A stretch of DNA of 64,000 nucleotides, from positions 179,267-243,266 of the forward strand of contig JAFSOD010000004.1 of the NCBI GenBank assembly GCA_017447165.1. The letters run 5' to 3'. Within the stretch, counting starts at the first letter, position 1, and each line of letters starts with the position of its first letter. Origin of the DNA: Bacilli bacterium. Its GTDB lineage: Bacteria; Bacillota_I; Bacilli_A; RFN20; CAG-826. The position numbers and the translations under genes were made by a program. Below are positions 4,528 to 30,978 of this stretch, piece by piece. The notes below the pieces were generated by a model that did not search any database, was not told the origin of the DNA, and was given only the letters and a program-made list of their open reading frames with translations.

Positions 4528-5697
4528 TCACTTATTATAAATAACTTTTGGTCCACTGTCCTTAACAAATATTTCTTGAACATTATTTTCTCCGTAGTGT
4601 TCTTTCATTTTTACTAAAACTTTTTCTAGTTTAGAAGTAGGAACTAAAGCAATAACACTTCCTGCAAAGCCACCACCATTAATTTTGACAGCCCCTTGAT
4701 TATCGCTATATTTCATTAATAAATCACACGCTTCTAAAGGTGAACCTTCGTAGTTAGATCCCACCATCATATTTTTTAAATATTTAGTGGAAGATTCTCT
4801 TGATTCATTAATCATTTTTAAAAATGTTTCTTGTTCATTATCCTGTAGTGCTTTAAAAGCATTTCTCACTCTAGAATTTTCTCCATAAAAATGTTTAGCT
4901 CTTAAATAAGCCATCTCACTCATCTCACTTTTATGAGCTTCTACTTCCTCAAAAGTACCTTCGACTAAATAATTATGTCCACACGCTTTAGCGGCTTCAT
5001 ACATATCACTAGGTATAGAAGAATATAAATCACTGAGAGATGAATGATCTCCACCAGTATTTACTAAAACAAAGTGTAAATCTTTAAATGGGAATTCAAT
5101 TTGTTCAACTAGAGGATCATCAATATTTTTAAAGTCAATTTTTACAACTCCACCAAAACCAACTCCAATTTGATCCAAAAGACCACTTTTCTTTCCAAAA
5201 TATTCATTTTCTGCGTATTTTCCAGCTTTACAAAGTTCTAATTTAGAGATCTTGCCATTATTAAATAAAACATTAAAAATGTGTCCCACTAAAAGTTCGA
5301 AAGCAGCAGAGCTAGATACGCCCGCTCCTTTAAAGATTGTGGATTCGCTATAAGCGTTAAATCCTCCAACTTTGTAGCCATGTTCTTTTAAATAAGCAGC
5401 AACTCCTCTTATTAATCCTTTTGAAGTTGCGTATTCTTTTTCATTCGCGTTTAAATCAGATAAATCTACTTCATCTAACTCAAAACCTAGAGATTGAAAT
5501 AAGACTTTATTAGAGTCGTTTTTACTAACTGAAGCAACAATTTCTAAATTACAAGCACTGGCTAAACATAGACCGTGGTTATGATCTGTATGATTGCCTA
5601 AGATTTCAAAGCGTCCACCACAGGAAAAAACATGTTCAGTGTCACTAACAAATATCTTTTTATATTCAGATAATAATTTAGAAACGTTATCTTCCAC
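4528..5697 (-). CDS. galK: galactokinase-family GHMP kinase
   Basis: 389 aa. Galactokinase signature GRFEILGNHTDHNHG and GHMP ATP motif GAGVSSSAAFE. No galT or galE neighbour, so the substrate is uncertain. Confidence 0.65.
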   Translation of the reverse strand: MEDNVSKLLSEYKKIFVSDTEHVFSCGGRFEILGNHTDHNHGLCLASACNLEIVASVSKNDSNKVLFQSLGFELDEVDLSDLNANEKEYATSKGLIRGVAAYLKEHGYKVGGFNAYSESTIFKGAGVSSSAAFELLVGHIFNVLFNNGKISKLELCKAGKYAENEYFGKKSGLLDQIGVGFGGVVKIDFKNIDDPLVEQIEFPFKDLHFVLVNTGGDHSSLSDLYSSIPSDMYEAAKACGHNYLVEGTFEEVEAHKSEMSEMAYLRAKHFYGENSRVRNAFKALQDNEQETFLKMINESRESSTKYLKNMMVGSNYEGSPLEACDLLMKYSDNQGAVKINGGGFAGSVIALVPTSKLEKVLVKMKEHYGENNVQEIFVKDSGPKVIYNK

Positions 5698-6254
5698 TAT
5701 TTGATTTTTCTTCCTTCTGAAAATGCTTGTCCAACTTTTTTACCCACAACATAATAGCCATGGTTAAAAGGATCATATGAAATGATTTGCATTTTTTCTA
5801 AATCAACTTTACCGTTTTCATCTAGATATTTATCATCCACTAAGAGTTGAACAATATTACCAATAATTCCATAGTCCTCTTTAAAACATTCAAGTGTACA
5901 CTCTAAAGAATAAGGTAAGTCATCTAAAATTGGCGCGTCCACTAATTCACTCTTATGAGCTTTCCAACCAGTTTTTTCAAACTTCTTTGGATCATTTTTA
6001 CTAGATACAACACCAACAAAATCCGCTGGAACCATATTGCTAACATTAGCCAAAGAAACAGTAAAGGCTTTTCTTTTTCTAATATTCTCAGTTGTGCGAT
6101 GAGAATCAGAAATATTAAGTTCGATTTGTTTTGTGTCAAATGCGCATCCCCAAGCCGCGTTCATTACATCGATAGAACCATCATCATTGTAGGTTGCTAT
6201 TAAAATTACAGGCATTGGGAATATTGCTGGGCAAATATTCATTTTCTTTTTCAT
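5697..6254 (-). CDS. flavin reductase-like FMN-binding (split-barrel) protein
   Basis: 185 aa. Family-typical pattern PMPVILIATYNDDGSIDVMNAAWG...AFTVSLAN. Its stop overlaps the start of the downstream kinase gene by 1 nt. Confidence 0.7.
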   Translation of the reverse strand: MKKKMNICPAIFPMPVILIATYNDDGSIDVMNAAWGCAFDTKQIELNISDSHRTTENIRKRKAFTVSLANVSNMVPADFVGVVSSKNDPKKFEKTGWKAHKSELVDAPILDDLPYSLECTLECFKEDYGIIGNIVQLLVDDKYLDENGKVDLEKMQIISYDPFNHGYYVVGKKVGQAFSEGRKIK

Positions 6255-22402: not shown

Positions 22403-24858
22403 TATTCTTTCTTCTCCTCGACTTCAGCGTCGATGACGTCACCTTTATTTTCTTGAGGTGCTTCTTCTACTGGTTTCTTTTCAACTTTAACATTAACAAG
22501 ATTTAAAACAGCATCAACAGAGGCAATGTTTAAACATTCTCTAAACATTTTATAGCCTTCGTTAACATAGTCTTGAAGTGGGTTGACATTCGCGTAGCTT
22601 CTTAAGTGAATACCTTCTCTTAATCTCGCCATCGCATCAATATGTTTGGTCCAGTTTTGGTCAATGCATCTTAAGATAAAGTTTCTCTCAATGTTTTGAG
22701 CGAGGTCTTCTGGCCATTCTTTTCTTCTTTCAAGATAATAATCTTGAATTGCCTCACCTAAATCTGGTCCACATTCTTCGGGATAAGATTCATCAAAGGC
22801 GACAGCGTTTAAAGATCCTGCTGGTAAGAAACGAGGCTCAACTTCTTTTAAGAGGAGTTCACCACTAACCAAGTTAGAGTTAGACCCCACTGGAACGGCT
22901 TTTTGAGATAAGAATTCGCCTGTAGTCTTAAAGACTTCATCAATAATGTCTTGAATATTCTTGCCTTCAATAATACGGTCACGTTTGTCATAGACAATTT
23001 GTCTTTGTTTGGCTAAAACGTCATCATATTCAAGTAAAGATTTACGAGTGTCAAAGTTTTGTCCTTCGATTCTCTTTTGAGCGGAGGTAATAACTCCAGA
23101 TACCAGTCTTGCTTCAAGAGCTTCTTCTCCGAAGTTCTTTTCAATATAGTTACGCATATTATCCGCAGCGAAACGAATTAATAATTCGTCATCAAAGGAA
23201 ACATAGAATCTGGAGAATCCTGGATCACCTTGACGTCCACTACGACCACGTAATTGGTTATCAATACGTCTAGATTCATGTCTTTCAGTACCCAAAACAC
23301 ATAAACCTGAAAAGTTGTAATAGCCTTTCTTCTCAAGCTCCTTTTTCTTATCTTCTGGGACTGTGGATTCTAAGTTTCTGACTTCGTCAACAATTTTAAT
23401 ATCAGTACCACGACCTGCCATGTTAGTAGCAAGGGTGATAGAACCTTTTCTACCAGCATCTTTAATAATTTCCGCTTCACGAGCGTGGTTTTTAGCATTC
23501 AACATTTCGTGTTGTAAGCCAGCCGCAGTTAATAAAGCAGAGATTTCTTCGGAAGATTCAACTGAGACAGTACCAATTAAAATTGGTTGACCGATTTCAT
23601 GTCTCACTTTAACTTCTTCCACCAAGGCTCTTAATTTTGGTCCTTTATGTGCATAGATATAATCAAGTGCGTCCACACGAGCGATAGGTCTATTTGGTGG
23701 AACACAAACAACACGCATGTTGTAGATTTTTCTAAATTCTTCTTCTTCAGTTTTAGCGGTACCAGTCATACCTGCCATCTTCTTATATAGACGGAAGAAG
23801 TTTTGATATGTAATAGTGGCTAAAGTTGTGGTTTCTTGTTTGATTTCCACATTTTCTTTAGCTTGAACAGCTTGATGTAAACCATCACTCCATTCTCTTC
23901 CCGGAAGGACACGGCCAGTAAATTGGTCAATGATTTGCACTTGTCCTTCGGCATCGACTAAATAGTCGACATCTCTAAACATAATATAGTTCGCTCTTAA
24001 AGCGTTATGGATTCTATGGACTAAATCAGCGAATTCTGGATCATATAAATTTTTGATGCCAAACATTCTATCTGCTTTAGCGTTACCTTCATCAGTTAAG
24101 TTAACAGTCTTATCTTTAACGTCAACAACAAAGTCGACATCTTTCTTTAAGGCCTTAACAAATCTATCGGCAACTGTATATTGAGAGGCGCTGGCTCTAG
24201 CACCACCAGAAATAATAAGAGGGGTTCTAGATTCATCGATCAAGATGGAGTCAGCTTCGTCAACAATACAGAAATTGAGCCCTCTTAAAACTCTATTTTG
24301 CATAGAAGTCGCCATGTTATCTCTTAAGTAGTCGAAACCTAATTCAGAGTTTGTGGTATATGTGATATCACATAAATAAGCTTCTTTCTTTTCAGAAGTA
24401 GTCTTTGTTCTTAAGTTAACTCCAACAGTTAAACCTAAGAATCTATAAATTTGGCCCATCCAGTTCGCGTCACGTTCTGATAAGTATTCGTTAACAGTAA
24501 CAACGTGAACGCCATTACCAGCTAAGGCGTTTAAATAAACTGCCATAGTGGCTGTTAAGGTTTTACCTTCACCAGTTTTCATTTCCGCGACATCGCCAGA
24601 ATGTAAAACTAATGAACCAATAATTTGAACTTTGTATGGGAATTCCGCAAGTGTACGTCTAGCTGCTTCTCTAGCGACGGCAAATGCTTCGATTTTGATA
24701 TCGTCTAAAGTCTTTCCGTTAGCGAGTAACTCTTTAAAGTATGGAGTCTTCGCTCTTAATTCATCATCGCTTAGGGCTTTCATCGATTCTTCTAAGGCGA
24801 TAACCTTATCCGCAATCTTTGAATATTTTTTAAGCGCCATTTTGTCAAATAAGCCCAT
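22402..24858 (-). CDS. secA: preprotein translocase ATPase SecA
   Basis: 818 aa with DEAD-like motor motifs MKTGEGKTL and VDEADSILIDE. Confidence 0.97.
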   Translation of the reverse strand: MGLFDKMALKKYSKIADKVIALEESMKALSDDELRAKTPYFKELLANGKTLDDIKIEAFAVAREAARRTLAEFPYKVQIIGSLVLHSGDVAEMKTGEGKTLTATMAVYLNALAGNGVHVVTVNEYLSERDANWMGQIYRFLGLTVGVNLRTKTTSEKKEAYLCDITYTTNSELGFDYLRDNMATSMQNRVLRGLNFCIVDEADSILIDESRTPLIISGGARASASQYTVADRFVKALKKDVDFVVDVKDKTVNLTDEGNAKADRMFGIKNLYDPEFADLVHRIHNALRANYIMFRDVDYLVDAEGQVQIIDQFTGRVLPGREWSDGLHQAVQAKENVEIKQETTTLATITYQNFFRLYKKMAGMTGTAKTEEEEFRKIYNMRVVCVPPNRPIARVDALDYIYAHKGPKLRALVEEVKVRHEIGQPILIGTVSVESSEEISALLTAAGLQHEMLNAKNHAREAEIIKDAGRKGSITLATNMAGRGTDIKIVDEVRNLESTVPEDKKKELEKKGYYNFSGLCVLGTERHESRRIDNQLRGRSGRQGDPGFSRFYVSFDDELLIRFAADNMRNYIEKNFGEEALEARLVSGVITSAQKRIEGQNFDTRKSLLEYDDVLAKQRQIVYDKRDRIIEGKNIQDIIDEVFKTTGEFLSQKAVPVGSNSNLVSGELLLKEVEPRFLPAGSLNAVAFDESYPEECGPDLGEAIQDYYLERRKEWPEDLAQNIERNFILRCIDQNWTKHIDAMARLREGIHLRSYANVNPLQDYVNEGYKMFRECLNIASVDAVLNLVNVKVEKKPVEEAPQENKGDVIDAEVEEKKE

Positions 24859-24956
24859 AATAATACCTCCTAGTTTTCTTTAATTAATAAAGAATGGATT
24901 AAACATTCGCTAATTAATATATCATTTATGTATTAGTCTTGGCTAATACAAATTGT

Positions 24957-25583
24957 TTAATATTCTTCTTTCTTTTTCTTTTTGGTTTTCGCTATTACTA
25001 ATATTTCGATAGTTTTTGCTCCTTTGCTTCTTAATAAATCGATTGAAGTTAAAAGTGTGCTTCCTGTAGTCATAATGTCATCTACTAACAATATCTTTTT
25101 ACCCTTCATTGATATATTTTCATCTATTTCTAAAACATCATTTATCTTATGTCTTCCAAGTGAAGATTGATCAGACTGTTTATGCGCTGTTTTCTTCTTC
25201 AAAATGGGTAATTCTTTAAGCTTTAAACTCTCAAAAATCGCTTTTACGTGATTAAAACCACGCCGCTCATCATCAATGTGATAAGAAGGTATATAGACGA
25301 TATGATAACCATGATATTTTAACTTCAAAAAAGTTAGATATCGATCTAAGAAAACATCCTTTAATTCATAGTCATAACAACCTTTAAATTTATAGATTAA
25401 TTCCTTTATAAAATCTGTATATTCATAGACGGCTGTCCCTTTTATATTTCCTATTTCGAAAGACACAAATTTAGCCTGTAATTTACTAAAACAATCTCCA
25501 CATAAAATGTTCTTCCTTTTCAATAAGTTATATATGGAATTATCCGTTATTCTTTTAAAGCAAATTTTACAGAAATTATCCAT
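24957..25583 (-). CDS. comFC: ComFC/ComF-family protein (phosphoribosyltransferase-like)
   Basis: 208 aa. N-terminal Cys pairs CKIC...CGDC and PRTase motif ILLVDDIMTTGSTL. Overlaps the comFA stop by 8 nt. Confidence 0.85.
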   Translation of the reverse strand: MDNFCKICFKRITDNSIYNLLKRKNILCGDCFSKLQAKFVSFEIGNIKGTAVYEYTDFIKELIYKFKGCYDYELKDVFLDRYLTFLKLKYHGYHIVYIPSYHIDDERRGFNHVKAIFESLKLKELPILKKKTAHKQSDQSSLGRHKINDVLEIDENISMKGKKILLVDDIMTTGSTLLTSIDLLRSKGAKTIEILVIAKTKKKKKEEY

Positions 25584-26775
25584 TATCTAATGCCTCATTA
25601 TTCTTCTTTATTTCTTCTATAGATTCTTTAATATCGGAAGTCACTTTTTCGCATAGATAAATTACTTCTCCTTCTGGCGCATCAGCCTTTCTTCCCACTC
25701 GTCCTGCGATTTGAATTAAAGTGCCTTTTTCATATATTTTATGGTCAGTTTGACTGATAATTACCTGCAAATTCTTTACAGTTACCCCTCTTTCTAGTAC
25801 TGATGTAGTTACTAAATATGAAAATAAGTGATTACGAAATTCTTCGATTATTTCAGATCTATAATTCCTTTTAGAATGAACATAATTTCCACCTTTAACA
25901 AATAAGGAAATTACTCTATAGATTTTCTCACATAAATTAATGGTGGGAGCAAAAACAAATACAGGTTTGTTATTTTTCTTATATTCCTTTATTTTTCTAA
26001 TTAAATATAAGTATTGAAATAGCGTATTTCGTTTAACTATTTTGGGTATTGGAAGAGGATGACGATGAAAACGAACTTCTAATCTTAATATATCTTTGTT
26101 ATCTCCATGGAAATGATCTATTACTTCTTTAGATGGAGTGGCGGACATCATAACATAATGACCACACAAAGATTGATAGAACATGCTATGTAATGTTGGA
26201 TCATCTTTAAACGGAAAAGCGTCTATCTCATCTAGGATAATTAAAGAGAAATAATTCTTGTATCTATATAGTTGATGTGTGGTTAGGACAACTATATCGC
26301 CTTCTTTATCTTTTGTGTGCCCTCCATATAAGCAAACCACTTTGTTATATTTAAATATTTCTCTTAACCTATTATGTAATTCTATTGCAACATCTCTTCT
26401 AGGGAGCGCAAACGCGACCTTATCGCCACAATTAATTGCATATTTAATAATGTTGAGGCAAATTTCAGTCTTTCCTGATCCACATACAGCAAAAACAAGA
26501 CTATCTATTCCTTTCTTATAGTTCTCCACTAACTTATCGGATAATTCTTTCTGTTCTGGAGATAGCTCGTACTCTAAATGAATAGGTGCTTTCTTGGGAT
26601 AAGATGGCTTATGTTCTACTTCTTCACCACGAAAAGAGATACACCTACGACAATAGGGTTTGCCATTAAGATATCCAATTGAATGTATATCGGTGTTACC
26701 ACAAATAGGGCATTTATAAGTTTCTATGTTGCAACATCTCCTTTCTTTTGATTTAATATTTATACAACCTGTCAC
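25576..26775 (-). CDS. comFA: ComFA competence DNA-uptake helicase/translocase (only full-length copy)
   Basis: 399 aa. N-terminal 4-Cys motif CPICG...CRRC, Walker A AVCGSGKTE, DEID box, and the VTTSVLERGVT and QIAGRVGR helicase motifs. The start is uncertain: the track uses GTG 26775 inside a hairpin, and the position homologous to the ATG of fragment F2 is ATA (26727-26725). Confidence 0.85.
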   Translation of the reverse strand: MTGCINIKSKERRCCNIETYKCPICGNTDIHSIGYLNGKPYCRRCISFRGEEVEHKPSYPKKAPIHLEYELSPEQKELSDKLVENYKKGIDSLVFAVCGSGKTEICLNIIKYAINCGDKVAFALPRRDVAIELHNRLREIFKYNKVVCLYGGHTKDKEGDIVVLTTHQLYRYKNYFSLIILDEIDAFPFKDDPTLHSMFYQSLCGHYVMMSATPSKEVIDHFHGDNKDILRLEVRFHRHPLPIPKIVKRNTLFQYLYLIRKIKEYKKNNKPVFVFAPTINLCEKIYRVISLFVKGGNYVHSKRNYRSEIIEEFRNHLFSYLVTTSVLERGVTVKNLQVIISQTDHKIYEKGTLIQIAGRVGRKADAPEGEVIYLCEKVTSDIKESIEEIKKNNEALDNG

Positions 26776-26802
26776 GCAGAGCTAAATAGGCTCAGACAGG
26801 TT
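26766..26802 (-). other. 8-bp-stem hairpin between cassette ORF A1 and the comFA 5' UTR
   Basis: aacctgtc (26766-26773) pairs with gacaggtt (26795-26802). The loop holds a nested gagc/gctc pair. No U-run follows, so it is not a canonical terminator. Confidence 0.5.
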
Positions 26803-26803
26803 T

Positions 26804-27127
26804 TTATTTTAACTTAACAGGTTTTCTTCTTTTTATAATTCTTATTGTCAATCTATCATCAGGGTGTATTTTCATACCAATCAATTCTCTTGATCCAAAA
26901 TGCTTACGTTTACCCTGAACAGGTCTATTGTTCACAAACTAAGCCTTAACTTTATTTTCGGTAGGATGTTTTAGTTTTGTCTGATGTCTATGTTGAGATG
27001 TTCCTGTGATAACAGCAATATAAATGTTCTTTTTATCATTCTTTAAAACAATTAAACCAGGGTGTTTGTTTACTATATAAAATTTTCCTTTTTCTAAATG
27101 TTTGTTATAAATCTTTTTCTTACTCAT
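26804..27127 (-). pseudogene. cassette ORF A1 (small basic protein superfamily), interrupted by an in-frame TAG at 26939-26941
   Basis: The 62-aa ORF is MSKKKIYNKHLEKGKFYIVNKHPGLIVLKNDKKNIYIAVITGTS.... After the TAG, the same frame continues FVNNRPVQGKRKHFGSRELIGMKIHPDDRLTIRIIKRRKPVKLK, which aligns with the C-terminal half of A2. Confidence 0.7.
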
Positions 27128-27142
27128 ATTTCCTCCTTTCTG

Positions 27143-27424
27143 TTATGTATTTCGTGTTTTTGGGGATCCACATACGGCAAAAACTAAACTATCAATTCCT
27201 TTTTTATAATTCTCTACCAGCCTATCTGATAATTCTTTTTGCTCTGGAGACAACTCATATTCAAGATGAATAGGTGCTTTCTTTGGGTAAGATGGTTTAT
27301 GTTCTACTTCTTCGCCTCGAAAAGAGATGCATCTACGACAATAAGGTTTGCCGTTTAGATAGCCAATAGAATGAATATCAGTGTTGCCACAAACTGGACA
27401 AGTAAATGAAAGCTGGTTATCCAT
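27143..27424 (-). CDS. F1: open 93-aa comFA N-terminal fragment (Zn-ribbon region up to a disrupted Walker A, GSPKT)
   Basis: 77 of 79 aligned residues are identical to ComFA, yet 32 of those codons differ synonymously. It ends GSPKTRNT* inside the conserved linker, 15 nt before the ATG of A1. Confidence 0.8.
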   Translation of the reverse strand: MDNQLSFTCPVCGNTDIHSIGYLNGKPYCRRCISFRGEEVEHKPSYPKKAPIHLEYELSPEQKELSDRLVENYKKGIDSLVFAVCGSPKTRNT

Positions 27425-27821
27425 TTTTCTTGCCTTTCTTTTTATGTTTTGATTTAATACTGGTAGATGGTGTGCGCCCTTTCTGGGTTAAAGCTTCATT
27501 CGTTAGCTTTCCACCATTTTTTCTTTGCTCTTTAATTAGTGAAACATATACATCTATTTTTATTTCATCGGAAACTACTAAACGATACTTTTTAAGTTCT
27601 TGTCCTCTATGTCGGAGTTTATCTTTTCTTATATACTTTCTGAAATAAGATTTCTTGTCTGAATTGGGATTTGGATTTACATCAAATTCTTCATAATTTC
27701 CAGTTACAGTTGGACTATCAGTTATTTCGATATTTTCCCATGTTCCATCTTCTAGAACACTGATTTCTATTGATGGGTGGTATTTAGTTCTTTTGTTTTT
27801 AAATATTTTATATTTATTCAT
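27417..27821 (-). CDS. cassette ORF B1, 134-aa basic protein of unknown function
   Basis: MNKYKIFKNKRTKYHPSIEISV...ITDSP...VNPNPNSDKKSYFRKYIRKD...RGQ. Homologous to B2. Its Lys-rich tail is encoded by what is comFA 5' UTR in other copies, and its stop overlaps the F1 start (ATGGATAA). Confidence 0.7.
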   Translation of the reverse strand: MNKYKIFKNKRTKYHPSIEISVLEDGTWENIEITDSPTVTGNYEEFDVNPNPNSDKKSYFRKYIRKDKLRHRGQELKKYRLVVSDEIKIDVYVSLIKEQRKNGGKLTNEALTQKGRTPSTSIKSKHKKKGKKNG

Positions 27822-27840
27822 GTATCAATTCCTTTCTATG

Positions 27841-28113
27841 TTATGGATTTGTTGTTTTTGGTGATCCACATACGGCAAAAACAAGACTATCTAAGCCTTT
27901 TTTGTAATTCTCAACTAACTTATCCGATAGTACTTTTTGCTCTGGAAACAGTTCGTACTCTAAATGAATAGGCGCCTTTTTAGGGTATGATGTTTTGTGT
28001 TCCACTTCTTCACCTTTAAAAGAGATACACCTACGGCAATAAAGTTTGCCGTTCAACATACCAATTGAATGAATATCAGTGTTACCACATACAGGACATT
28101 TATAAGGTTCCAT
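27841..28113 (-). CDS. F2: open 90-aa comFA N-terminal fragment (GSPKT end), the only copy with ATG at the conserved start position
   Basis: MEPYKCPVCGNTDIHSIGMLNGKLYCRRC...AVCGSPKTTNP*. Eight amino-acid differences from ComFA over the shared region. Confidence 0.75.
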   Translation of the reverse strand: MEPYKCPVCGNTDIHSIGMLNGKLYCRRCISFKGEEVEHKTSYPKKAPIHLEYELFPEQKVLSDKLVENYKKGLDSLVFAVCGSPKTTNP

Positions 28114-28148
28114 ATTGAATTATCACCTTTCTTTTGATTTAAAATAGC

Positions 28149-28219
28149 CATAGTCGTGGTCATCACTAGTTTGATGCCGGCCCACAGGAAGCTGTGTAGC
28201 TCCATTAACGGGGCTTTTT
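28149..28219 (-). repeat. E1: ~70-nt structured element, copy 1
   Basis: Aligns base for base with 28981-29050. It contains two 5-bp hairpins: catca/tgatg, and cacag/ctgtg at 28183-28196. Confidence 0.7.
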
Positions 28220-28305
28220 ATTTTTACGGTTTTATAATATTTGCCATATATTGGGCATTTATAAGTTTCTATATTGCGTTACCTCCTTAATTTTGTTTTA
28301 ATATT
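28202..28305 (-). pseudogene. deletion remnant: comFA 5' UTR plus 7 codons fused to the last ~14 codons of an A-type cassette ORF
   Basis: Minus strand reads aaggaggtaacgcaat ATA GAA ACT TAT AAA TGC CCA ATA TAT GGC AAA TAT TAT AAA. The comFA start (IETYKCPI) runs into the A2-like tail (PIYG.YYK...), with the junction at about 28246-28256. Confidence 0.65.
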
Positions 28306-28360
28306 TGTAGTTAGTGCTATCGGTTAATCCGACCAAAGCCCAAGTTTAGTAGGTTTTACA

Positions 28361-28657
28361 CTAACTTTTTTTGTTGTTTAAATAGTTTTCAATTTCAATT
28401 AAATCATCTTCTGATAGGTTGAATTTTTCCAAAAGTTGACCTCTTGTTTTAATTGGATCCTTTCTTAAATACTTTCTAACATATGCTTTATCATTTCTTT
28501 TTGGATTCGGATTTACTTTAAGCTCAATATATCTGTTCTTCTTAGTGGGGCTTGAAGTTACTTCTAAATTAATCCAAATAGTTCCGTTTGAATCTACTTC
28601 TATGCTTGGATGATTTTTTGTTTTTCTGTTTTTATAGAATTTGAATTTTTTGCTCAT
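28361..28657 (-). CDS. cassette ORF B2, ~98-aa basic protein of unknown function
   Basis: MSKKFKFYKNRKTKNHPSIEVDS...VTSSP...VNPNPKRNDKAYVRKYLRKD...RGQ. I prefer the ATG at 28657 (SD aaaggagg) over the track start at 28687. Confidence 0.7.
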   Translation of the reverse strand: MSKKFKFYKNRKTKNHPSIEVDSNGTIWINLEVTSSPTKKNRYIELKVNPNPKRNDKAYVRKYLRKDPIKTRGQLLEKFNLSEDDLIEIENYLNNKKS

Positions 28658-28696
28658 TTGACACCTCCTTTTTGTTATGGTTTTCAAGTCTTTGGT

Positions 28697-28945
28697 GATC
28701 CTTATATCGCATAAACTAAATTATCTATCCCTTTCTTATAGTTCTCCACTAACTTATCCGATAGTTCTTTCTGCTCAGGGGGACAACTCATACGATAAGT
28801 GAATTGGGGCCTTACGATATGAAGGCTTATGTTCCACTGCTTAACCCTTAAAATAGATACATCTTCGGGAGTAATGTTTGCCGTTTAGGTATCCTATTGA
28901 ATGAATACCAATGTTTCCACAAACTGGGCATTTATATGTTTCGAT
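28697..28945 (-). pseudogene. F3: decayed comFA 5' fragment
   Basis: Reads IETYKCPVCGNIGIHSIGYLNGKHYSRRCIYFKG* with GAA->TAA, loss of one Zn-ligand Cys (C->S), and a later 1-nt insertion (tccccctga). Confidence 0.8.
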
Positions 28946-28980
28946 ATTGCATCATCTCCTTAAATTTGATTTAATAATGT

Positions 28981-29050
28981 CATGGTCGTGGTCATCACAA
29001 GTTTGATGCCGACTCGTAGGTAACTACGCAGCTCCATTAACGGGGCTTTT
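28981..29050 (-). repeat. E2: ~70-nt structured element, copy 2 (overlaps the stop of A2)
   Basis: Same architecture as E1. The hairpin cgtag/ctacg at 29015-29028 carries two compensatory base-pair changes relative to E1. Confidence 0.7.
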
Positions 29051-29441
29051 TTATTTTTTTGCGTTTTTTATAATAAGAACCGTAAATAGGATTACCTTTT
29101 TGTACTTTAATAATTAAATACATATCTTGGATGCTAAACGACATATCTGGATATTCTTTTTCTCCGTAATCATTTCTATCTCCTATAAAAGGTCTTTTCT
29201 TTATTAGCGATATTTCAACGTTACTATCGGTTGCATGTTTTAATTTGTAATATCCTTTTCTTAAACCTAGACGATCAAATTCTTCTTTGGTCATTGATCC
29301 AGTGATAATTGCATAGAAAGCTTTATCTTCATTATCAATTTTAAAAATTTGTCCAGGATGTCCACCTGGGCTACCATCTAAAACACGATAAAACTTGCCG
29401 ATTTCAAGTGTTATCTTGTGTTTTCTTTTCTTTTTACTCAT
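29037..29441 (-). CDS. cassette ORF A2, 134-aa basic protein of unknown function
   Basis: MSKKKRKHKITLEIGKFYRVLDGSPGGHPGQIFKIDNEDKAFYAIITGS...KKRPFIGDRNDYG...IQDMYLIIKV...KKRKKIKKPR. SD aaaggagg before the ATG. Confidence 0.7.
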   Translation of the reverse strand: MSKKKRKHKITLEIGKFYRVLDGSPGGHPGQIFKIDNEDKAFYAIITGSMTKEEFDRLGLRKGYYKLKHATDSNVEISLIKKRPFIGDRNDYGEKEYPDMSFSIQDMYLIIKVQKGNPIYGSYYKKRKKIKKPR

Positions 29442-29480
29442 ATTTTCCTCCTTTCTTGTTATGTTTTTAGTATCTTTAGC

Positions 29481-29603
29481 GATTCACATACCGCAAAAAT
29501 AATCTATCAATTCCCTTCTTATAGTTCTCCACTAACTTATCTGATAGTTCTTTCTGCTCTGGAGACAGTTCATATGAAAGATGAATAGGTGCTTTCTTAG
29601 AAT
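29481..29603 (-). pseudogene. F4: 5'-truncated, frameshifted comFA fragment (codons ~45-88)
   Basis: Reads KKAPIHLSYELSPEQKELSDKLVENYKKGID, then is frameshifted. At about 29603 its 5' end is fused to the truncated U5 ORF. Confidence 0.75.
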
Positions 29604-29727
29604 ATGAATGTTACTCTATGAAAAACGAAAACATTTCCTTCTTCATCAACGATATTTGCTGGGTGGTTGTTTTTTAAATAAATTCTGAAGTGCCTCCTGA
29701 AAGAACTATTTTTTGTTTTTGTTTCAT
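29604..29727 (-). pseudogene. U5: frameshifted and truncated remnant of a fifth cassette ORF
   Basis: ATG at 29727 after the conserved linker (aaatacataacataaaggag). Reads MKQKQKIVLSGGTSEFI*, then in another frame KNNHPANIVDEEGNVFVFHRVT, which matches the family HP-x-I core. Confidence 0.55.
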
Positions 29728-29892
29728 TTTTTCTCCTTTATGTTATGTATTTATTTCTTGTAGATCAGGGCGGCCTTTATTTTTTTATAGGTTTTCTCCT
29801 TTTATAATTGATAAAAAACTCCCTACATTATATATAGAGTGGCTTTCTTCATTTTTTTGTGAAAAAAAGTTTAATAAATCTTTATAGGTATT

Positions 29893-29914
29893 AAAAAAAG
29901 GCCTATAGGCCTTT
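29893..29914 (-). terminator. rho-independent terminator of rpiB (upstream boundary of the cassette array)
   Basis: Minus strand reads aaaggcctataggcc followed by ttttttt. Confidence 0.7.
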
Positions 29915-29935
29915 ATGTATTAAATATTTTTTAGA

Positions 29936-30373
29936 TTATTTTTCTAAGTCGTTAATCATCTCAACACGAGTTAAGTGTCTACCACCTTCAAATTCAGTGT
30001 TAAGGAAGATATCCACTCTTCTAAGAACATCTTCTAAAGCCATAAATTTTTGACCAAAGGAGATAACGTTTGCGTCATTATGTTGTCTCATTAATCTAGC
30101 AACTTCATCGTTATAGGCAATACCGCATCTAACGCCTTTGATTTTATTAGCCGCAATAGAGATACCCTCTCCACTAGTGCAGACAACAACACCAAATTGA
30201 CATTTTTTAGAAGCTACTTTTCTAGCTACTTCAGCGCCATATAAAGGATAATGGCAACTATCTAAAGAATAAGTACCAACATCAATTACTTCATGTCCTA
30301 ATTCTTTTAAATGTTCTGCGATCGCGTTTTTATATTCTAATCCGCCATGATCACTACCAACTGCAATTTTCAT
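29936..30373 (-). CDS. rpiB: ribose-5-phosphate isomerase B
   Basis: 145 aa starting MKIAVGSDHGG, with CTSGEGISIAANK. Typical RpiB/LacAB. Confidence 0.9.
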   Translation of the reverse strand: MKIAVGSDHGGLEYKNAIAEHLKELGHEVIDVGTYSLDSCHYPLYGAEVARKVASKKCQFGVVVCTSGEGISIAANKIKGVRCGIAYNDEVARLMRQHNDANVISFGQKFMALEDVLRRVDIFLNTEFEGGRHLTRVEMINDLEK

Positions 30374-30384
30374 ATTGATACCTC

Positions 30385-30978
30385 CTATAAGACTTTCTCA
30401 ATATTTTTTAAAGATATAGGTCCCTCTCTAACAATTTTAACTTGTTCTCCAGTAAGGTCAACTATTGTTGAAGGAACTCCACCTAAAGCAAATCCTTCAA
30501 GTATATAACCTAGTTCATCATTAAATATCTCTTTTACTTCATACGAAGTAAGCGCAGGTTTACATCCACTTTTATTTGCGGAAGGAACTAATAAAGGAGA
30601 ACCCACAAATTGAATTAAGTCTTGAACTAGTTTAATATCAGGAACTCTAATTCCAATTACACCTGTATCATGAGTGACATAAGTAGGAACGTTACCTCTA
30701 CTTTTAAGTAAAACAGTAATTGCTCCAGGCATAAAAGCTTTAATAACTTTTAACTCTCTTTCAGACACATATGCATACTCTTGGATATCATCAACTGAAC
30801 CTAACATTAAAGTATAAGGTTTATCTTCTGGACGTCCTTTAATTTCGTTTAAAAGTTTGTAGGCAGTAAAGTCGTTATAATAAACTCCTAAGCCCATAAC
30901 TGTTTCAGTAGGAAAAGCGATGACTTTAGATTCATCAAGAGCCTTTTTAGCGAGTTCAAATTCCTTAGTTGAGTGCAT
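30385..30978 (-). CDS. tsaC: L-threonylcarbamoyladenylate synthase (TsaC/YwlC type)
   Basis: 197 aa with FPTETVMGLG and SANKSG motifs of the Sua5/YciO/YrdC family. Confidence 0.85.
   Translation of the reverse strand: MHSTKEFELAKKALDESKVIAFPTETVMGLGVYYNDFTAYKLLNEIKGRPEDKPYTLMLGSVDDIQEYAYVSERELKVIKAFMPGAITVLLKSRGNVPTYVTHDTGVIGIRVPDIKLVQDLIQFVGSPLLVPSANKSGCKPALTSYEVKEIFNDELGYILEGFALGGVPSTIVDLTGEQVKIVREGPISLKNIEKVL

Follow-up and report, generated by a model that had tools for sequence, protein, structure and literature searches.

The stretch of DNA examined here, 64,000 nucleotides (nt) of a Bacilli bacterium assembly (contig JAFSOD010000004.1; hereafter the window), carries between rpiB and the competence gene comFA a series of small open reading frames (ORFs) encoding basic proteins, interspersed with copies of the 5′ end of comFA. 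Five of these ORFs, designated A1, A2, B1, B2 and U5, lie on the minus strand at the positions given in a preliminary description of this DNA, which had read them as five cassette ORFs forming one divergent superfamily. On the minus strand, the order is rpiB, U5 with a piece of comFA, A2, a comFA copy, B2, a remnant of the comFA start followed by an A2-like stub, a comFA copy, B1, a comFA copy, A1, comFA, comFC and secA (Table 1). The start remnant directly abuts the end of the A2-like ORF, and this remnant of a sixth cassette had been overlooked, so that six cassettes, not five, are stacked between rpiB and the working comFA. The repeated comFA segments are supported by direct-repeat analysis and tblastn mapping, and the cassettes share a common plan consisting of a leader with a ribosome-binding site (RBS), the ORF, a family-specific hairpin element and the comFA start with its first ~100 codons. 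The ORF is intact in half of the cassettes (A2, B2 and B1) and disrupted in the other half (U5, the A2-like stub and A1). The in-frame TAG in A1, whose intact relatives are 92% identical (protein P0232; also locus L015), is probably real rather than a sequencing error, because the truncated A1 product is identical to two proteins called on other contigs (P0328 and P0329); the cassette adjoining the working comFA therefore contains a dead gene. We rejected the possibility that the array is an assembly artefact, as similar arrays are present in numerous independent assemblies and identity among the repeats is just 77-82%. Besides the ORF and the comFA 5′ copy, the cassettes contain only antisense or overlapping reading frames that lack independent support.

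To relate the five proteins to one another we compared sequences, profiles and predicted structures. BLASTP pairs A1 with A2 (31% identity, E 2e-14) and B1 with B2 (48% identity, E 7e-31), in agreement with the preliminary description, and finds no significant match between the A and B proteins (best E 0.04). U5 matches the hidden Markov model (HMM) of a third family, C (E 1.4e-17), full-length relatives of which include P0231 and ORFs of loci L012, L019, L022 and L042. The earlier arrangement of two pairs plus U5 is thus retained with respect to the pairs and to the membership of U5, and is replaced in its grouping by three families, A, B and C. Narrow profiles built from close homologues show no link across families (hhalign probability 0.1-10%; 0.1-1% for A versus B) and would by themselves wrongly refute a superfamily, because the link required a broader A profile. 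When 1.84 billion representative proteins were searched with a profile of A1 and A2, only 151 clusters were recovered (~150 at 50% identity), among which subfamilies A1, A2, A4, A5 and A6 are interlinked (hhalign 95-99.9%). The resulting A-super profile, comprising 55 representatives together with A1 and A2, aligns with family B at a probability of 92.9% (E 3.6e-7, 85 columns) and with family C at 93.0% (E 3.3e-7, 59 columns). Control comparisons using reversed and 20 column-shuffled B and C alignments gave probabilities of ≤3.5%, demonstrating that the link to B and C is not due to Lys-rich composition. In addition, the HMMs of B and C match bridging members in the A match list, such as P0479 (E 1e-7 and 3e-9). 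Compared directly, B and C give an hhalign probability of 1.4%, and a fourth cassette family found in other genomes, D, has no statistical link to the superfamily (9%).

The alignment of A-super with B follows the motif skeleton that had been proposed for these proteins, pairing HP with HP, ITGTS with ITDSP, KHPTEN with NPNPNS, SFVNNRP..G with SYFRKY..RG and DDRLTI with SDEIKI, apart from a shift of one residue that hhalign introduces in the IT.S strand between A and B. Across 74 family A sequences, conservation reaches at least 90% or is complete at H28, P29, T47, G48, S78, R83, P84 and R89, and in family B H15, P16, T34 and S36 are conserved. Together with the bridging sequences and a matching order of elements in two AlphaFold models (see below), the profile comparisons show that the five ORFs encode one divergent superfamily, as had been suggested. 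The proteins are small and very basic, as described previously (pI 9.9-10.9, net charge +11 to +23). Identity at codon positions 1+2 greatly exceeds that at position 3 in all of the families (0.87-0.92 versus 0.53-0.57 in A2), a substitution pattern showing that the encoded proteins are under purifying selection and the genes are real. Each ORF is furnished with a AAAGGAGG-type RBS. The relatives in databases are all unnamed or 'hypothetical' and derive from rumen or gut 'Bacilli bacterium' assemblies.

AlphaFold2 models of A2 and B1, built with these family alignments, are of high confidence, with a mean predicted local distance difference test (pLDDT) score of 93.9 and a predicted template-modelling score (pTM) of 0.85 for A2, and a pLDDT of ~95 over the folded core of B1 (residues 1-100), whose tail (residues 101-134) is predicted to be disordered. 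Secondary-structure elements follow one another identically in the two models: a short strand, a strand opened by the HP motif, a strand ended by IT.S, four further strands and a C-terminal helix, with an extra helix at residues 52-58 that is specific to A2. The full-length structural matches of both are MazF/Kid/CcdB and the type III toxins CptN/ToxN; MazF from S. aureus and M. tuberculosis rank at the top in Foldseek (probability 0.99-1.00, template-modelling score 0.47-0.55), and nine top matches are common to the two models. The predicted fold is therefore that of the CcdB/MazF toxins, an SH3-like barrel with a C-terminal helix. This likeness, as modelled, is one of fold rather than of demonstrated family membership, so that the resemblance to SH3-barrel toxins of the PemK/MazF type noted in the preliminary description holds for structure and fails for sequence, where no library recognises anything. 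Of the checks envisaged there, profile searches linked the families, and AlphaFold and Foldseek analysis of A2 and B1 revealed a shared predicted fold. In the models, the HP histidine opens strand 2 and the Thr/Ser of IT.S closes strand 3. Judged by strand topology alone, His-Pro and Thr/Ser would be located where MazF has Arg29-Pro30 and Thr52, of which Arg29 and Thr52 are catalytic.

Two observations concern regions outside the common core. P0116, a metagenome match to A2, is chimeric: its N-terminus has an ORF6N domain (PF10543), and the rest corresponds to the C-terminal two thirds of an A2-type sequence. The two parts meet at the ..SEDEFKRLGLRKG.. helix, which corresponds to the A2-specific insertion, and an ORF6N gene may have been the source of this insertion. 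The Lys-rich tail of B1 (GGKLTNEALTQKG..KKKGKKNG; window positions 27417-27521) is shared with family C proteins and with internally deleted B variants (P0231, P0210 and P0221). The tail, predicted to be disordered, coincides with the Y-type hairpin element and the ribosome-binding region of comFA, and may be no functional segment of the protein but the result of translation running through a nucleic-acid element.

Table 1. Features of the cassette array between rpiB and comFA. Coordinates are positions in the 64,000-nt window; minus-strand genes are listed in their own 5′ to 3′ order, followed by junctions and 3′ elements.
Feature	Position	Strand	Basis or remark
rpiB	29936-30373	minus	Precedes the array
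U5, family C remnant, frameshifted and 3′-truncated; cassette closest to rpiB	~29600-29727	minus	Translation; C-family HMM
comFA 5′ copy, internal piece (residues ~58-95), fused to truncated U5	29494-29607	minus	Repeats, translation, tblastn
A2, intact family A gene, 134 amino acids (aa)	29037-29441	minus	ORF, AlphaFold model, codon-position identity
Displaced comFA 5′ copy, degraded (stops and frameshift)	28696-28948	minus	Two tblastn pieces, 70-79% identity
B2, intact family B gene, 98 aa	28361-28657	minus	BLASTP; relatives in L020, L025, L035
comFA RBS and start-region remnant, 51 nt, cut off by the deletion that took most of the sixth cassette	28240-28290	minus	Direct repeat D5
Sixth-cassette stub, last codons of A2-like ORF left by the deletion	28205-28239	minus	Comparison with A2 3′ end
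Displaced comFA 5′ copy, open, 90 codons, ATG start	27841-28113	minus	Protein identity 88% (tblastn mapping)
B1, family B gene, 134 aa	27417-27821	minus	ORF, AlphaFold model
Displaced comFA 5′ copy, open, 93 codons, ending GSPKTRNT-stop at the Walker A position	27143-27424	minus	Protein 92% identical to resident ComFA residues 16-100
A1, family A gene, 107 codons, in-frame TAG at 26939-26941; adjoins working comFA	26804-27127	minus	31% identical to A2
Resident full comFA; Walker A coding site 26461-26496; probable ATA start 26725-26727	25576-26727	minus	ORF, tblastn, comparisons
Junction and leader before A1: comFA fragment end ..GTATGTGGATC, then CCCAAAAACACGAAATACATAACAGAAAGGAGG, then A1 ATG	27125-27184	minus	Sequence comparison
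Equivalent junctions	27819-27882 (B1), 28655-28716 (B2), 29439-29500 (A2)	minus	Sequence comparison
U5 leader, without upstream comFA fragment	29725-29770	minus	Sequence comparison
Hairpin element and ATATTAAATCAAAAG box, W type, between A1 and comFA	26745-26802	minus	Sequence comparison, folding, covariance
Hairpin elements, other types	27447-27518 (Y), 28133-28219 (X), 28291-28365 (Z), 28965-29052 (X)	minus	Sequence comparison, folding, covariance

The internal junctions of the array are all alike, with a comFA fragment ending ..GTATGTGGATC followed by CCCAAAGACACGAAATCCATAACAGAAAGGAGG and then the ATG, and the identical form of junction precedes A, B, C, D and YhcG cargo in other genomes. 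The comFA fragments stop (GSPKT.. and a stop codon) 10-20 nt ahead of a separate RBS and ATG, leaving one gene per module. Since the leader still resembles the comFA sequence directly 3′ of the Walker A codons, comparison of the junctions suggests that all of them stem from a single ancestral duplication. When metagenomes were scanned with a degenerate leader pattern, nearly all matches were due to chance and three of 120 loci were relevant.

Downstream of every cassette ORF lie a hairpin-rich element, of a type specific to the family, and a conserved ATATTAAATCAAAAG box. Copies of the X-type element are ~90% identical between genomes whose A2 genes share 53% identity at third codon positions, and they show a few compensatory changes (GCGTAG/CTACG versus CACAG/CTGTG; CCTGTC/GACAGG versus GTTGTC/GACAAC). 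These elements are candidates for an RNA partner, a protein-binding site or a promoter. A covariance model of the W-type element recovered 10 copies at comF loci and, outside them, a match of E 0.17 at L052 and nothing at L049; a hairpin and box behind distant members of the superfamily therefore remains an unconfirmed impression. Rfam gave no match in window positions 24500-30500. In the plus-strand orientation, the first of the X-element hairpins (28198-28215 and 29030-29047) resembles a terminator, with the stem-loop AGCTCCATTAACGGGGCT preceding a T run; judged from its sequence, it would halt antisense transcripts entering from the comFA start region precisely where the A2-type ORF ends. 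A hydrophobic frame of 50 aa over the X element was rejected as a gene because the compensatory hairpin changes alter its residues non-conservatively and it has no RBS.

To examine the history of comFA itself, we scanned GTDB species genomes with the ComFA protein of the window and obtained 28 related comFA loci, all from metagenome-assembled genomes of rumen Bacilli or 'Erysipelotrichaceae'. Residues 16-100 of ComFA are 88-99% identical to those of the window where residues 101-399 are 46-68% and RpiB 57-85% identical. At third codon positions, identity is 54-68% in the 5′ part of comFA versus a near-saturated 33-50% in the 3′ part. This conservation does not reflect intrinsic constraint, because at two loci (L007 and L026) the 5′ part is as diverged as the 3′ part, and because in the closest relative (L009) the relationship is reversed, with 96% nt identity to the window in rpiB, ~95% in the 3′ part of comFA and only 80% in the 5′ part. 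In this close pair identity jumps within ~10 nt of GTATGTGGATC, and in distant pairs it falls from ~90% to ~55% at the same breakpoint, directly after the GSGKT codons. The comparisons therefore show that the 5′ segment of comFA evolves separately from the 3′ segment, with a genealogy of its own and a switch at the Walker A (GSGKT) codons. Sequence 5′ of Walker A belongs to an exchangeable pool, and sequence 3′ of it follows the host lineage. The resident comFA carries ATA where other cassette copies carry ATG (for example at 28111-28113). An in-frame TAA is present three codons upstream of the ATA in most related genomes, and ATA is therefore probably the start codon of the resident gene. In this start region (26699-26760), an upstream ORF of 6-7 codons (ATG..TAA) lies directly behind the RBS and overlaps the ATA.

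All of the related loci for which upstream sequence is available have at least one family A, B, C, D or YhcG gene between rpiB and comFA, and at least 14 contain extra comFA 5′ copies, as in the window. The B2 protein is 96-99% identical in L020, L025 and L035, and the B2 module, from the RBS through the 3′ element, is 92-100% identical at the nt level in four genomes in which the flanking comFA copies are 70-88% identical. These alignments show that ORF modules are shared between genomes with far more diverged host genes and mark the unit from RBS to 3′ element as the most recently shared part of the cassette. In six genomes (L009, at 5031-6023, L010, L013, L028, L029 and L031) the same slot, with the same leader, is occupied by a gene of 330 aa encoding a YhcG/DUF1016 PD-(D/E)XK nuclease (Pfam matches of E 3e-52 and 2e-38), of which L029 has two copies. 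No recombinase or integrase gene was found within ~6 kb of the related loci, where the neighbours are prfA, prmC, sua5, rpiB, comFC, secA, prfB and uvrB.

The genomic context of the wider family was examined for 12 members. P0343 (L042, 5001-5351) overlaps the end of comFC and precedes secA in a locus that also has a C-family gene upstream of comFA (L042-44), and P0348 (L049, 3134-3538; also L050) lies directly after comEA-comEC and before holA. The superfamily therefore meets DNA-uptake operons at three positions: before comFA, after comFC and after comEC. Members of a distant subfamily, P0369 and its paralog (173 and 167 aa; L046, 783-2012), flank an overlapping 73-aa XRE-HTH gene in a layout reminiscent of higBA and other toxin-first pairs. 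A COG3943 RNA motif (Rfam RF02941; L055, 3688-3792; 77.7 bits versus a gathering threshold of 71.8) is located 70 nt upstream of member P0355. At another distant locus (L054), a divergent transfer-messenger RNA gene lies ~150 nt upstream of member P0364. Two signals are consequently present that we could not separate, a recurrent tie to DNA-uptake operons and the company of toxin- or defence-type genes.

We consider the best overall explanation, which we favour tentatively and at slightly less than an even chance, to be that the array consists of cassettes encoding a superfamily of MazF/CcdB-fold, toxin- or defence-type effectors that is spread by recombination. The most likely function that we infer is that of an RNA-targeting toxin or defence cargo resembling MazF/ToxN. 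The proteins would act as nucleic-acid effectors, probably as endoribonucleases or tight RNA binders, and would behave as toxin or defence-type cargo; as no protein antitoxin is encoded, control would be exerted through the co-inherited 3′ hairpin RNA, through low expression or by a host factor. Cassettes would spread by recombining through conserved sequence (the comFA 5′ repeats, the leader and the start region), and homologous recombination after natural transformation would be the simplest mechanism; a trans-acting site-specific recombinase using the P-loop codons is a conceivable alternative. An incoming cassette would be added to the array instead of replacing the old one, replacement being costly, and older cassettes would then decay, the toxin gene first. 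This explanation is favoured by the conflict-type company of the family (the YhcG nuclease in the slot and the XRE-HTH and COG3943 RNA neighbours) and by the decay that in three of the six cassettes strikes the ORF itself. Toxin, immunity or anti-defence cargo would each fit the turnover, the sharing between genomes and the alternative cargo in the slot.

Several results weigh against a toxin or defence role. No antitoxin ORF is present in the cassettes of the window, and the distant members outside the DNA-uptake and XRE-HTH contexts, P0355 among them, are solitary, in unrelated neighbourhoods and in several cases without an obvious partner, a situation easier to reconcile with a harmless nucleic-acid-binding protein. 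Strand topology in the models places His where MazF has its catalytic Arg. Scans of Pfam, NCBIfam, PHROGs and PADLOC returned noise only (E 0.05 or worse), with no PemK (PF02452) or CcdB match in Pfam and NCBIfam at E up to 1. HMM searches of the PDB with both family alignments found no MazF or CcdB match, and hhalign of the B profile with B. subtilis EndoA gave a probability of 0.1%. Collections of phages, plasmids and viral contigs contain no relatives, and a phage or plasmid origin is therefore not supported. The 3′ elements have fold z-scores of -0.7 to -1.6 and two covarying pairs only, which argue weakly for structured RNAs, and Tandem Repeats Finder detected trivial 6-10-nt repeats only in window positions 26000-30500, with no ToxI-like repeats. 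Finally, none of the recombination events that this explanation assumes was observed directly. We also considered the comFA N-terminal fragment as an antitoxin and set this aside, since no such fragment adjoins first-position or single cassettes or solitary members.

The main rival, which we regard as unlikely but deserving of serious consideration, is that the proteins serve competence as accessory factors; basic and non-toxic, they would bind single-stranded nucleic acid and function with ComFA, ComFC or ComEC on incoming DNA or on the operon mRNA, their diversity reflecting lineage-specific tuning rather than conflict. The tie to DNA-uptake operons in three arrangements (upstream of comFA in all 28 genomes, at the end of comFC and after comEA-comEC) is what this would predict, as are the strong basicity of the proteins, the binding of single-stranded nucleic acids by MazF and SH3-like folds, the existence of solitary members without an antitoxin and the purifying selection. 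However, families A, B and C, the unlinked family D and the unrelated YhcG nuclease share one slot in close relatives, a pseudogene (A1) adjoins the working comFA in the window, and sharing between genomes, stacking and decay would be unusual for a core cofactor; moreover, most of the distant members sampled are located away from competence genes. We consider it improbable that the cassettes encode immunity or anti-defence proteins that neutralise a nuclease or toxin or protect incoming DNA, with old copies still protective. The presence of one divergent paralog per cassette, the arrays of displaced cassettes and the sharing between species would parallel the orphan immunity genes of contact-dependent inhibition (CDI) and Rhs arrays, but the conserved His, Thr, Ser and Arg on a toxin fold suggest an active or binding site rather than a neutralising surface, and the neighbourhood contains no cognate toxin gene. 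In addition, nucleic-acid enzymes usually have acidic inhibitors, whereas these proteins are strongly basic.

That A, B and C are unrelated basic proteins sharing a small barrel and composition by convergence is very unlikely: BLAST and narrow profiles show no link, and neither the B versus C comparison nor family D provides one, but against this stand the 93% match of the broad profile in the same register over 59-85 columns, compared with the low scores of the shuffled alignments, the independent bridging sequences, the common order of elements and nine shared top structural matches of the two models, and the use of the same genomic slot and leader. We judge it highly unlikely that the ORFs are translation-coupling or regulatory leaders, whose translation just upstream of comFA would matter given its poor start codon. 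The ATA of the resident comFA, in place of the ATG used elsewhere, and an ORF that overlaps the comFA start in L007 are compatible with such a role, and there is a precedent in B. subtilis, where ComEC synthesis requires translation of ComEB (bioRxiv 10.1101/2020.12.30.424838). Coupling would not account for the purifying selection that maintains protein sequence and fold, for the 80-110-nt hairpin element and separate RBS between each ORF of the window and the next comFA start, or for the family members found far from comFA.

A bolder form of the toxin explanation, which we put forward as a rather improbable conjecture, is that the array represents a recombinase-free cassette system riding on natural transformation, with the first ~100 codons of comFA serving as a portable landing pad and a cargo of MazF-fold toxins that lack a protein antitoxin and are restrained by the 3′ hairpin RNA. 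Any cassette flanked by comFA codons would then be able to recombine into the comFA of a distant species while keeping that gene whole, and a reversed, single-copy form of type III-like RNA control would make the cassettes addictive, hence their stacking.

The array can be compared with several known systems, although our search of literature and annotation found no account of the family or of a comFA cassette array. MazF/PemK/Kid and CcdB have the fold predicted in the models, whereas the family described here shows no detectable sequence similarity to them, has no MazE, PemI or CcdA-type antitoxin gene, is far more basic with Lys-rich tails and has, by strand topology, His at the position of the catalytic Arg; the two-gene operon of those systems is replaced by a chromosomal, comFA-linked cassette array. 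The antitoxins of known type III systems consist of 34-45-nt units repeated in tandem upstream of the toxin gene. Here, by contrast with ToxN, AbiQ and CptN systems, tandem repeats are lacking, the candidate element is single-copy and downstream, and the 40-nt leader is likewise single-copy; CptN/ToxN are among the structural matches, and neither PADLOC nor Pfam registers a match. In CDI and Rhs orphan arrays, a conserved gene is accompanied by displaced modules that retain a piece of that gene, able to act as a homology arm, are shared between strains and decay with age. The comFA array likewise has a full-length conserved gene beside displaced modules, each with a comFA piece, and is a mirror image of cdiA/rhs arrays in that it is the 5′ end of the conserved gene that is repeated and the modules are stacked upstream of it, with four comFA 5′ copies and a start remnant preceding the full comFA. 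It differs further in having a separate single gene per module in place of a fused toxin domain plus immunity gene, and in that the conserved gene encodes a cytoplasmic DNA-uptake ATPase rather than a secreted toxin. The cassettes resemble those of integrons in being small, mostly single-gene and co-oriented at one site, with toxin or unknown cargo and a hairpin-rich element 3′ of the ORF. In contrast to integrons, there is no integrase within 6 kb, the boundary falls in the P-loop codons of comFA and not in the hairpin, each cassette includes ~300 bp of comFA, and the junctions look descended from one ancestor; an integron-type mechanism was set aside on account of the missing integrase and the boundaries outside the hairpins. 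What is new is a family of predicted MazF/CcdB fold that has neither sequence similarity to known members nor a protein antitoxin, in a mirror-image array of the orphan-toxin type.

If this explanation is correct, a sequence-orphan family of ~150 clusters, all 'hypothetical', would join the MazF/CcdB fold and provide a target for research on toxin-antitoxin systems and phage defence. A core competence gene would be a mosaic whose first ~300 bp travel with accessory cargo across species, an unusual means of lodging accessory genes in a conserved gene while leaving the latter active. The three DNA-uptake contexts would also make it possible to test whether natural transformation in uncultured Bacilli of the rumen and gut is exploited, regulated or sabotaged by such genes.

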